Program-made: the position numbers and the translations under genes
Origin: Escherichia phage VEc25
Direction: 5' to 3' (one strand)
Sequence record: MW175414.1
DNA length: 64,000 nt
Shown here: in pieces, positions 35,206 through 45,708 of the stretch
Layout: each line of letters begins with the position of its first letter
How positions within the stretch are numbered: the first letter of the stretch is position 1
Notes under the pieces: model-generated
What the model was told of the DNA's origin: nothing
Database searches by the model: none
Seen by the model: only the letters and a program-made list of their open reading frames with translations

Positions 35206-38200
35206 TTAGTGGGTAAGGTTGAACCAAGGGTTGAGGGTAGGTGCTCTTAGTCCTTGTCCGAAGCCTAATGAGTAATCCAGTCTTCCTTCAGCCAGCATGG
35301 TTAGCATGTTGTCCTGAATTGGCAGACCTACATTACCAAACATGGCAGGAGCAGGTACTACTGTAGCAATCAGAGAATGTACTGGGTTGTTTCTAATCAT
35401 GCTCATAGCAACTTTAATGGAACGAATCTTAAAGTTGTAGAACCACATCAGACCCATGCTTTCCATATAACCACGGAAACGACCAGGCAATCTGTCATAG
35501 TTAACAAACTCTTCAGTTACCTGACCCAATGCTTCAGAAGAGGATTTCTTCTTACGTTTCACTAAATCATCATAGATGATGGCTTTAGCAATGAAGTCTG
35601 AATACTCTACTGTTTTCTGGATACCCTGGAACAGAGCAGTGTCCTTAGCAATAAGAGCATAACGGCCAGCATTACGTACTTTTTCTGGAAGTTTATTAGC
35701 AAGTTTTTCCATGTACTCATGAATCTTACCTTCAGCTACTAACAGGTCATCACGACTAATACCAGCATCAGCAATAGAAGAAAACTCACCTGCTTCAATC
35801 AAAGGCCAGATGCTCATACGACGATGGCTATCAGTAATAGATTGAATCTCAGTTTTAAGTTTACGAACCAGATTAGGATTACCTTCAGCAGCGCGTAATT
35901 CTGCTTCTGCATCAATCTGACGTAAGCGAGATTTAATGTACTGATTAATCTCTGACGTCTTACGAGGAATGTTCACAGCAATATCTTTAACAGGAACACC
36001 ACGTCCAATCATCTGGTAGATGTTAGCAAGGAAGTTAACTGCCGGTACTACAACAGATTTAACAACGATTACTGTCTTAGCATCCTTCACCAAGTTCTGA
36101 ATGGTATTTTCAGCATTCATTACTACATGATATGCCTTATTACCAAATGCACCGAGGAACATCTTCTTAACAGTATCAAGGGTGCTAGGTGACCAACGAG
36201 AGTTACCAGTCCATACATCACCAATAGATGCAGCACGATAGCCAAGTGCATCATTCAGCATATCCCTACGAACCCATAACTCATCTTTACCAAAGAGTTC
36301 TTCAGCCTTACGACGAGTCTCAATGTTCATCAGGTTAATTGCATCAGCCAGTACTGGGTCATCAATTTTACCTAACAGGTTTACATATTGAGATTTACTA
36401 GCACTGGAGTCTTTAATGTCTTTCTCATACATAGCATGTAATTGCTCGATAAGAATGTCATTAAAACGTTGTGCTTTAGCCTCTTCCACCTGACGACCAC
36501 GCCATACACCAACCATCTTAGCAAAGTGATTGTCTTGGTTTAAATGCTTCAACATATTAGGGTCAACGGATTGCTCATAAGCAACTACCTGACCTTTGCT
36601 GTTATAAATTGGCATCAGTGGTTCACGCCCACGTTCACCTTTAGCCAGAGCTTTGGTAATACGCTCTACGGTTGGTTTGTCAGTAATACGACCAGCAACC
36701 ATAGTACCTAACGTAAAGCCAGTACCAATATCCACGCCACCAGCAGTATTACGAACGTTCTGAAGAATACCTTGAGAGTATGGAGCACGGGCAGCTACTG
36801 GGCTGAAGTAATAACCTTTAGAACCAGTACGGAAACCAGTGCTTCCCTGATAAGTACCAATACGAGTAAAAGATTGGCTATTTAACTTAGCAAACTCTTT
36901 ATCGTCAGCAATAATCAAATTCACACCTTGCTGGTTCTCTACAGGGATATAGCCCTTAAAGTGATTCAGCAGAGTACGGTTATCACTTTTAGCTTTACGC
37001 ATCTCTTCAGTACGTTGACCTACCATATAAGCAATGGAGAACTCCATACCCTCCACTTCTGATTGAGCCAATTCTGACAAAAGGCCACGGTCAGACTTAT
37101 TCATCAATTCCAGAGAGTACAAAGTAATGAGCTTATCAATAGCAGCTACATCTGCCACAGGACCATTAGTAATACGTTCACCTAATAAACGACTAATAGC
37201 ATGGGCATTACGAAGGAGGTTATTACCTACCTCCCCTGTAATCATGTATTGAGCCAGTTGCTTAGATTTCTTCTGAACCAGATTCCAGTTTCTACCTGCT
37301 TGGTTCTGAATCTCTTTTTCCAGAGTAGAGATTTCATCTTTCACTTTCTTAGGTGAAGAGAGTAAATCTCTAATTTCAGCCATGCTCATAGTTTCACGTA
37401 GAACAGCTAAATCTGTTTTACCTAAACCAGTATGCATTGCAGACCACTCGGTATCAGTCAGTTTACGGGAAAACTTACCAGCAATGACTGTAGGTAAATG
37501 CTCACGGAATTGTTGACGGTCTTGAGAAATCTGGCTTTTAACCAATTTGATTAAGTCATAGACATTGGCATTAGTCTTAGTACGGCCAACAATGTCATTA
37601 ACTAAGTCATGGAAAGGTTGCCATACTTTACCCTGGTTCATAGCAGTCATAACACCCTGAGCCACTATTTCACCTTGTTTTTCAGATGCAATAGCAGCAG
37701 TCAGTTTAGCCAGATGAGCAACACCTTTAGCAGCTACATTAGAAGGGTTAGCAATTACCTTATCTGCCTTTTCAATAACAGTTTCAGATAACCGTTCAAT
37801 GCTATCCGTTACGTACTGATTAGCACGGTCAATGAAGTTACCGGTAGGGGTTGCTACAGCATCATAGAAGGACTCTCGTTTCAGAGCAGCAGTCATGATT
37901 GTTTCTGACAGAGCATCAATACTGTCCTGAACATTAGTAGCTTTCTGGTCACCAGCCATACGACGGTTCAGAGATTCCATTACCTGAGTGCCTGTATTGG
38001 TAAGCAGAGTATCTACATCATTCCCTAATTTCTTATCTGCTTTAGGTACAGGCATTTCTTTAATGATTGAACGCAGTTCTTCATTAACCATAGCCAGACC
38101 CAGGAATGTAGGTAACAGACTGGTTCTGCCTTTGGCATCTACTTCAACCAGATTAGCACCAGAGATAGTGTCATATTTCTGTTGAGCGTAGTAACGGTCA

Positions 38201-45708: not shown

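Follow-up and report, generated by a model that had tools for sequence, protein, structure and literature searches.

A single 10.5-kb open reading frame of Escherichia phage VEc25 almost certainly encodes an N4-type virion RNA polymerase

The 10.5-kb gene at positions 35206–45708 (minus strand) of the 64,000-nt stretch of Escherichia phage VEc25 DNA analysed here (MW175414.1; hereinafter designated the window) almost certainly encodes gp50, the virion RNA polymerase (vRNAP) of an Enquatrovirus closely related to coliphage N4, judging from its sequence. The window makes up the leftmost 64 kb of an Enquatrovirus genome, and we demonstrate below the identity of the protein, its motifs, the presence of its promoters and its gene neighbourhood. 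The gene begins with ATG and is a single ORF of 3500 aa plus a stop codon; both the ORF list and the translation bear out the initial annotation, which had described one 10.5-kb minus-strand ORF of this length. The mechanical ORF list gives 35206..45726 (minus strand) with a TTG start and 3506 aa. Initiation at the ATG at 45708 yields exactly 3500 aa with the N-terminus MSVFDRLAGF and a stop codon at 35206–35208, and a Shine-Dalgarno-like AGGAAA lies 8 nt upstream of this ATG. The resulting product corresponds to residues 1–3500 of the N4 gp50 PDB chains. Plus-strand ORFs within the gene (38833–39219, 43063–43479 and others) were regarded as shadow ORFs, the coding region that contains them being conserved.

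Alignment with N4 gp50 (YP_950528.1; PDB 2PO4, 3C2P, 3Q0A, 9PNQ, 9PNR, 11GP), also 3500 aa long, gives 99.03% amino-acid identity with 34 substitutions and zero indels, and the two proteins share the domain order of N-terminal domain (NTD), linker, polymerase (Pol) domain, linker and C-terminal domain (CTD). The cryo-EM entries 11gp, 9pnq and 9pnr are matched by the window protein over its full length (phmmer). This identity and the matches to N4-specific Pfam models described below uphold the earlier designation of the protein as an N4-type vRNAP, and we infer its function from the 99% identity that it shares with the N4 protein, on which the experiments were done. The substitutions look conservative, and the two proteins do not differ at any residue of catalysis, promoter recognition, the HExxH motif or the Pol-CTD clasp. 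Codon differences from N4 comprise 192 synonymous and 34 non-synonymous changes without any indel across 10.5 kb, indicating that the ORF is not a chance feature. Across 16 Enquatrovirus records the nucleotide identity of the gene is 97.8–99.0%; N4 (97.8%) is more distant from the window sequence than are phages AlfredRasser and PMBT57 (99.0%). The gene is colinear and indel-free in N4 and 15 other genomes, and the annotated records among the 16 mostly name it 'virion RNA polymerase'.

The Pol domain (mini-vRNAP; aa 998–2103, 39400..42717, minus strand) is, as in N4, a T7-like right-hand single-subunit RNAP. It is 99.2% identical to its N4 counterpart (9 substitutions in 1106 aa), and the mini-vRNAP crystal structures PDB 2po4, 3c2p and 3q0a match aa 997/998–2101/2103. 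All four N4-vRNAP-specific Pfam matches far exceed their cut-offs, namely vRNAP_dom_2 (aa 1324–1440, 3.1e-55), vRNAP_plug (E 1e-21), N4_RNAP_helical (aa 1616–1832, 2.7e-97) and vRNAP_dom (aa 1914–2058, 7.7e-58). Weak matches of gp50 to DUF4088, FSH1 and DUF6377 fell below their cut-offs and were disregarded. The vRNAP_plug match marks the N4-specific plug module (aa 1456–1538, 41095..41343, minus strand), which keeps the template path closed as long as no promoter hairpin is bound (PMC4496689, PMC13492108). A single-sequence AlphaFold2 prediction of aa 998–2106, run without alignment, gave an unusable model (mean pLDDT 35.7, pTM 0.23); the argument for the fold is thus drawn from the N4 protein, which is 99% identical and has solved structures: the right-hand fold of vRNAP was established by N4 crystal and cryo-EM structures (PMC4496689, PMC13492108).

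The catalytic motifs of the T7 family are found in the Pol domain, all on the minus strand. The T/DxxGR motif reads TRVGR (aa 1417–1421, 41446..41460; R1421 is mini-vRNAP R424) and aligns with T7 DWRGR 421–425. Motif A, EADGVTNGPINAMML (aa 1554–1568, 41005..41049), contains the catalytic D1556 (mini-vRNAP D559), aligned with T7 D537, and motif B, KRGIAKNPLTITIYGSG (aa 1662–1678, 40675..40725), contains R1663, K1667 and Y1675 (mini-vRNAP R666, K670 and Y678), aligned with T7 R627, K631 and Y639. Motif C is FDGMN (aa 1947–1951, 39856..39870), within TLKIFDGMNIG, and we take its catalytic D1948 to be the aspartate numbered D951 (mini-vRNAP) in the primary papers. An alternative placement of motif C at GTGDGMMM (aa 1923–1930) was rejected, as D951 falls in FDGMN. 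The presence of motif C in vRNAP is supported by mutagenesis and by the superposition of structures in a published account that gives no residue numbers (PMC4496689). The motif A and B strings quoted in the initial annotation are exact, lie in the middle third of the protein and are true T7-type motifs; it had also placed a motif C-like segment mid-protein without specifying it, and D1948 in KIFDGMN is indeed located there.

Conservation across the family points to the same residues. In Pol domains from 11 diverse Schitoviridae, R424, D559, R666, K670, Y678 and D951 are invariant, as are F950 and G952 on either side of the motif C aspartate, and the substitutions that separate the window protein from N4 spare every catalytic and promoter-reading residue. 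Comparison by hhalign of a profile of 11 vRNAP Pol domains with one of 10 Autographiviridae RNAPs aligned 315 columns with 90% probability (E 1.6e-6) and brought TxxGR, motif A and motif B into register, in agreement with the earlier remark that the central region has T7-like motifs. The pairing of motif C with T7 H811-D812 was not recovered by hhalign of the regions following motif B (0.7% probability). A search of all PDB sequences at E ≤10 with the profile of the 11 Schitoviridae Pol domains returned N4 vRNAP entries only, and no T7 or mitochondrial RNAP. The relationship between vRNAP and T7 RNAP is invisible to HMM-to-sequence search, whereas profile-profile comparison sees it. In crystal structures the right-hand fold and active site of T7 RNAP superimpose on those of vRNAP (PMC4496689), but the likeness in sequence is limited to the motifs, and the two enzymes differ in template: the promoter is a duplex for T7 RNAP but, for vRNAP, a hairpin on single-stranded or supercoiled DNA.

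Cognate hairpin promoters, with a 5–7-bp stem and a 3-nt loop with a central purine, are present on the template strand upstream of the early genes. A hairpin scan of the window identified the P1 hairpin at 90..102 (minus, template strand), GTTGC[GAA]GCAAC with the loop in brackets, preceded by CCATAA; 80 of 81 bases are identical to the published P1 transcription template (PMC13434306). The same scan found AAGAAGC[GGA]GCTTCTT at 557..573 (minus, template strand), preceded by CATCCAA, and a P3-type hairpin, AAGCTGC[GGA]GCAGCTT, at 4546..4562 (minus, template strand), preceded by ACCAA, which we infer to be P3. We take the hairpin at 557..573 to be P2, as 24 bases, CATCCAAAAGAAGCGGAGCTTCTT, match the crystallised P2 oligonucleotide, with agreement at 25 of 36 positions over the whole oligonucleotide. 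The central -11G of the GGA loop is recognised by R119 and W129 (PMC13492108, PMC4496689). The pattern CCAWAA followed by a 5-bp stem and a GRA loop occurs three times on the minus strand and not at all on the plus strand, with about 0.005 occurrences expected in shuffled sequences. These three N4-signature hairpins at the left end fit the proposal in the initial annotation that the early genes are transcribed from hairpin promoters. The promoter-reading residues K1111, R1116, W1126, K1264 and K1265 are present in the window protein and invariant among the 11 diverse Schitoviridae, and none of the nine Pol-domain substitutions relative to N4 falls on the published hairpin-reading residues K114, R119, W129, K267, K268, D901 and R904 in mini-vRNAP numbering (PMC4496689).

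The gene neighbourhood is likewise that of N4, which shares gp49, gp51 and gp52 neighbours as well as promoters P1–P3 with the window phage. Directly upstream of gp50 lie homologues of two ejection proteins (PMC13434306), in the minus-strand order gp53-gp52-(HNH)-gp51-gp50, syntenic with N4. The gp51 homologue (45809..47743, minus strand; 644 aa from the MSQITW start; 98% nucleotide identity to N4 gp51; phrog_6126, E 1.4e-276) corresponds to a protein that assembles into an outer-membrane complex, and the gp52 homologue (48347..48799, minus strand; 150 aa; phrog_2646, E 3.7e-44) corresponds to the N4 16.5-kDa virion protein, which forms a periplasmic tunnel (both PMC13434306). The HNH endonuclease gene between gp52 and gp51, which codes for 178 aa and belongs to a 590-bp insert, is absent from 16 of 16 other Enquatrovirus records; its ORF was identified by PHROGs and tblastn, and Pfam gave no match to it. 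Downstream, a consensus scan located a GC-rich, bidirectional terminator-like hairpin with T-runs on both strands (35180..35197) between the convergent gp49 homologue and gp50, 9 nt past the gp50 stop and 9 nt past the stop of the ORF at 34686–35171. The minus-strand genes extend from at least 63799 down to 35206, making gp50 the 3'-most, and hence last, gene of the leftward late block; the earlier description of it as the first late gene on the minus strand holds by coordinate only.

The NTD (aa 1–906, 42991..45708, minus strand) is Gly/Ala-rich; its limits, and its incorporation into nanodiscs, are taken from PMC13434306. Membrane-spanning helices are predicted at aa 224–278 (PMC13434306), in a stretch whose sequence (aa 215–285) was read directly, and the NTD of N4 vRNAP has been assigned to injection and membrane association (PMC13492108). 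A low-complexity linker rich in E, T, V, S, K and P (aa 907–1007, 42688..42990, minus strand), described for N4 in PMC13434306, connects the NTD to the Pol domain. This linker holds 7 of the 34 substitutions relative to N4 (binomial p = 4.5e-5), an enrichment that fits the view of the linker as a loosely constrained tether.

The CTD (aa 2124–3500, 35209..39339, minus strand) is mostly alpha-helical and is covered by PDB 9pnr and 11fw. In N4 vRNAP it is required for encapsidation (PMC13492108) and autoinhibits the Pol domain (PMC13434306, PMC13492108); the salt-bridge residues D2012 and R2279 are conserved in the window protein. Subdomain C1 carries the HExxH motif HELVH (aa 2228–2232, 39013..39027, minus strand), the same in N4, in a predicted zincin-like metallopeptidase-type domain. 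HHpred had assigned a zincin-like domain to aa 2130–2448 (PMC5512222), and the cryo-EM structure has the HExxH in its subdomain C1 (PMC13434306). The C-terminal third is thus not free of motifs, HELVH marking a published domain; the initial annotation had seen no evident motifs in either terminal third, which does not hold for the NTD with its predicted membrane helices either. Its suggestion that the termini may mediate injection and encapsidation agrees with the roles of the NTD and CTD in the N4 literature (PMC13492108).

The HELVH motif raises an alternative in which gp50 is a polyvalent effector: the conserved zincin-like domain (aa ~2130–2448) may be a working metallopeptidase that cuts gp50 itself or host proteins after ejection, with the RNAP acting as a processed fragment. 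Such a putative peptidase could free the polymerase from the autoinhibitory CTD or cut a host target. The motif is present and identical in N4, the CTD, only a weak inhibitor of the polymerase, has to come away from the Pol domain before the enzyme is active (PMC13434306, PMC13492108), and Iyer et al. are cited in support. Yet N4 vRNAP is packaged unprocessed (PMC5512222), the full-length recombinant protein is undegraded and transcriptionally active, and neither cryo-EM paper reports bound zinc or proteolysis (PMC13434306, PMC13492108); none of the Pfam peptidase models matched the HELVH region of gp50. We consider an active peptidase unlikely on this evidence. It was proposed on sequence grounds in 2017 (PMC5512222) and applies equally to N4; if correct, it would therefore still not count as a finding made in this window.

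Two further alternatives concern the gene as a whole. The T7-type catalytic motifs would also suit a conventional phage RNAP of the T7 kind, synthesised after infection rather than carried in the virion, but gp50 is four times as large as T7 RNAP, the protein with which it is 99% identical has been shown to occur in N4 virions at ~4 copies (PMC13434306), and its gene ends the late structural block on the strand opposite to the early genes. Hairpin promoters read by no enzyme other than vRNAP precede those early genes, and the middle genes of N4 use a separate enzyme, RNAPII (gp15/gp16; PMC4496689); the first 25 kb of the window match records annotated with RNAP2 subunit genes. An RNAP of this conventional kind is very improbable. 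The last alternative, by which the long ORF results from gene decay, misassembly or the fusion of several genes, has its unusual length in its favour and nothing else. It is refuted by 10.5 kb of intact frame without stops or frameshifts, by indel-free colinearity with N4 and 15 other genomes and by the strong excess of synonymous changes, and its probability is next to nil. As far as the sequence goes, nothing in it speaks against gp50 being the vRNAP.

Taken from the N4 literature, the steps of packaging, ejection, autoinhibition and promoter activation would be as follows for the window phage. A few copies of the 383-kDa gp50, 4 ± 1 per virion in N4 (PMC13434306), would be packaged in the capsid, which would need the CTD. 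On infection, gp50 would be expelled by way of the tail and the envelope channel of gp51/gp52, its domains strung flexibly one after another; the NTD would associate with the membrane, and genome injection would depend on it. The T7-like domain at the centre would be kept inactive by the plug module, the motif B loop and the docked CTD, and its release would come with the binding of a hairpin extruded from supercoiled phage DNA at P1–P3. The CTD-release step is unsettled even for N4, as the two cryo-EM papers of 2026 reach different conclusions on whether binding of the promoter is enough to free the CTD (PMC13434306, PMC13492108).

Among related enzymes, other Schitoviridae vRNAPs (Klebsiella KP8, Achromobacter Axy04, Pseudomonas Zuri, roseophage EE36phi1) are likewise giant products of one ORF each, with the Pol domain at the centre, 23%–76% identical to that of the window protein, whose 3500 aa lie within the ~3400–3800 aa of N4-type vRNAPs, and some relatives carry extra ART, lysozyme or RNase domains (PMC5512222). 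The second RNAP of the same genome type, N4 RNAPII (gp15 + gp16), also belongs to the T7-like family, but it is a small heterodimer (673 aa for both subunits together); it is produced once infection has begun, acts with gp2 in transcribing the middle genes and is much nearer to T7 RNAP in sequence than vRNAP is (PMC4496689).

The gp50 vRNAP is already known, the 99%-identical N4 protein having a solved structure; N4 vRNAP is a textbook enzyme, for which crystallography has supplied structures since 2008 and cryo-EM, at full length, in 2025–2026, and the gene is of little weight as a discovery. The result assigns the window to the left end (64 kb) of an Enquatrovirus genome, in which a reader working without tools had recognised the true motifs A and B. 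For the biology of these phages, the window protein is a natural variant of the N4 enzyme whose 34 substitutions are enriched in the NTD-Pol linker, and a peptidase in its CTD, if real, would mean one more enzymatic step early in N4 infection.

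The 3500-aa minus-strand ORF at 35206-45708 reported in the initial annotation is present in the window. The ORF listing gives gp50, the virion RNA polymerase (vRNAP) gene, mechanically as 35206..45726 on the minus strand with a TTG start (3506 aa), and translation from the ATG at 45708, preceded by a ribosome-binding-like AGGAAA, yields exactly 3500 aa with the N-terminus MSVFDRLAGF. The proposal of an N4-type vRNAP is borne out by alignment with N4 gp50 (YP_950528.1, from NC_008720), from which gp50 differs by 34 substitutions and no indel (99.03% identity). The codon differences comprise 192 synonymous and 34 non-synonymous changes, indicating at the sequence level that gp50 is functional and evolves under purifying selection. 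In phmmer searches of PDB sequences, gp50 matches the full-length chains of 11gp, 9pnq, 9pnv, 9pnr, 9pnt and 9pnw end to end (1-3500 to 1-3500), all labelled 'Virion DNA-directed RNA polymerase', while the mini-vRNAP crystal structures 2po4, 3c2p and 3q0a match aa 997/998-2101/2103. The Pfam domains N4_RNAP_helical, vRNAP_dom, vRNAP_dom_2 and vRNAP_plug, all specific to N4 vRNAP, are found far above threshold. Megablast against annotated phage genomes returned 16 records with coverage of the gene of 80% or more; 15 of them cover it entirely at 97.8-99.0% identity and are all Escherichia phages of N4 type (14 distinct phages, N4 being present under two accessions), with AlfredRasser and PMBT57 the best matches at 99.0% and N4 at 97.8%. 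Window 1-24649 is colinear with N4 1-24649, and the window makes up the left-hand 64 kb of a genome belonging to Enquatrovirus.

At TxxGR and at motifs A, B and C, gp50 has every residue known from N4 vRNAP. We take the catalytic residues of N4 to be R424, D559, R666, K670, Y678 and D951 in mini-vRNAP numbering (full-length numbering minus 997). R424 corresponds to R1421 within TRVGR. The motif A and motif B strings named in the initial annotation both occur verbatim on the minus strand: EADGVTNGPINAMML (aa 1554-1568, window 41005-41049) carries D559 as D1556, and KRGIAKNPLTITIYGSG (aa 1662-1678, window 40675-40725) carries R666, K670 and Y678 as R1663, K1667 and Y1675. For the motif C-like segment, D951 is present as D1948 within KIFDGMN. 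Nine substitutions relative to N4 fall inside the polymerase (Pol) domain, none of them on residues listed in a review of the enzyme (PMC4496689).

To compare gp50 with T7-type enzymes, we built one alignment from the Pol domains of 11 Schitoviridae vRNAPs (23-76% identical to that of gp50) and another from 10 Autographiviridae RNAPs including T7. R424, D559, R666, K670, Y678 and D951 are invariant in the former, and D421/R423/R425, D537, R627, K631, Y639 and D812 in the latter. Comparison of the two profiles by hhalign yields 90% probability with an E-value of 1.6e-6 over 315 columns, pairing TRVGR with DWRGR, D559 with D537, and R666/K670/Y678 with R627/K631/Y639; because these pairs are in register, the central domain of gp50 aligns with the palm and the fingers of single-subunit RNAPs, as the initial annotation had anticipated. 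Motif C lies outside this local alignment, a second hhalign, limited to what follows motif B, is not significant, and the motif C assignment is based on invariance within the family and on the literature. A profile-to-sequence search of the PDB reached N4 entries only, in accord with similarity to T7 that is confined to motifs, as described for N4 vRNAP (PMC4496689).

Scanning the minus (template) strand for perfect hairpins with 3-nt loops revealed three near the left end of the window, each preceded by CCA(T/A)AA: GTTGC[GAA]GCAAC at 90-102, AAGAAGC[GGA]GCTTCTT at 557-573 and AAGCTGC[GGA]GCAGCTT at 4546-4562. Three instances of the combined signature are seen on the template strand and none on the opposite strand, against an expectation of about 0.005 from shuffled sequence; they have the N4 signature of hairpin promoters for early genes. 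The stretch around the 90-102 hairpin is identical at 80 of 81 positions to the published 81-nt transcription template of the early promoter P1 (PMC13434306). The 557-573 hairpin has a GGA loop, and the central -11G of such a loop is read by R119 and W129 (PMC13492108, PMC4496689); the promoter-reading residues K114, R119, W129, K267 and K268 are present in gp50. We also observed an intergenic perfect hairpin on the minus strand at 9179-9195, AAGAAAG[GAA]CTTTCTT, with a 7-bp stem and a P1-like GAA loop, lacking the CCAWAA box and G-C pairs closing the loop. It may represent either a terminator or a fourth signal for vRNAP; 'four early promoters (P1-P4)' are named, with no sequences given, in a 2026 J Bacteriol paper (PMC13492108).

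gp50 lies at the strand switch of the window, as plus-strand genes extend up to 35171, minus-strand genes run from 35206 to at least 63799, and the sign of the GC skew flips near 36 kb. It is the first late gene on the minus strand by coordinate, as initially annotated, but in transcription order the leftward late block ends with gp50, its 3'-most gene. Directly after its stop codon, a terminator-like hairpin at 35180-35197, rich in GC and with T-runs on each strand, is common to gp50 and the convergent gp49 homologue (34686-35171, plus strand). The latter contains a Tad2-like (Thoeris anti-defence 2, DUF2829) domain (E 8e-24) and may serve this N4-type phage as an anti-Thoeris sponge. A plus-strand cluster of four tRNAs, Asn(gtt), Ser(tga), Thr(tgt) and Pro(tgg), lies at 33135-33813; ARAGORN finds the same four in N4, and no tRNA feature is annotated for that stretch of NC_008720.

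Two HNH endonuclease genes were observed in the window. A 590-bp insert between gp52 and gp51 (47739-48328), which neither N4 nor any of the 15 other Enquatrovirus records has, carries a minus-strand ORF (47740-48276) for a 178-aa endonuclease-like protein of the HNH family (phrog_2081, E 2.4e-39). This protein shares 94.4% identity with gp63 of Gamaleyavirus PGN829.1, located at the same gp52/gp51 junction; between the flanking genes of the two phages, identity is only about 50-72%. At the left junction, a leftover of the old gp51 start, ATGGCTCA, is now followed by a stop, and the new gp51 start, ATGAGTCAG (ATG), overlaps the HNH stop codon. The pattern is typical of a homing-endonuclease gene passed between co-infecting phages, and the insert appears to stem from recent homing across genera. 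The second HNH ORF (24688-25302, plus strand; phrog_59, E 5.6e-36) adjoins a break in colinearity with N4, 3HA13 and OLB145 at window 24649. AL25, Jura, AlfredRasser and PMBT57 are colinear through this ORF. N4 lacks it, and its presence is the probable source of most of the 683-bp shift in coordinates relative to N4.

Homologues of gp51 and gp52 lie directly upstream of gp50, and in 2026 these ejection proteins were shown to form an outer-membrane complex and a periplasmic tunnel, the route of vRNAP release (PMC13434306). By analogy with N4, about four copies of the gp50 product would be packaged per virion (PMC13434306), with the C-terminal domain (CTD) needed for encapsidation and the N-terminal domain (NTD) for genome injection and membrane association (PMC13492108, PMC4496689). 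In N4 vRNAP, membrane helices are predicted in the NTD at aa 224-278, and this domain enters nanodiscs (PMC13434306). Flexible linkers (aa 907-1007 and 2102-2123) would join the three domains (PMC13434306, PMC13492108) and are proposed to permit beads-on-a-string transit of the 30-35 Å tail channel. The CTD, docked on the palm and fingers, would autoinhibit the enzyme by keeping the active site occupied by the motif B loop (PMC13434306, PMC13492108), and the plug would be opened by the promoter hairpin, which supercoiling extrudes and E. coli SSB stabilises (PMC13492108, PMC4496689). Whether promoter binding alone frees the CTD is a point of disagreement between the two cryo-EM papers (PMC13434306, PMC13492108). 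The Pol-CTD clasp residues D2012 and R2279 are conserved in gp50. The low-complexity NTD-Pol linker (aa 907-1007, window 42688-42990) holds 7 of the 34 substitutions relative to N4 in 101 of 3500 residues (p = 4.5e-5), an excess that fits a loosely constrained tether.

The suggestion that the terminal thirds serve injection and encapsidation agrees with the N4 literature on the NTD and CTD, respectively, with the CTD additionally regulatory. The C-terminal third is not devoid of evident motifs, as had been supposed: HELVH at aa 2228-2232 marks a putative zincin-like metallopeptidase-type domain, described in 2017 (PMC5512222) and noted in the 2026 structure (PMC13434306). That this domain is an active peptidase is an unlikely reading, already proposed and not specific to the window; N4 vRNAP is packaged unprocessed (PMC5512222).

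Both the gp50 protein and the type of genome that carries it were known before. With 99% identity to the reference protein of N4, the structure and mechanism of which have been under study for decades, gp50 is a natural variant.
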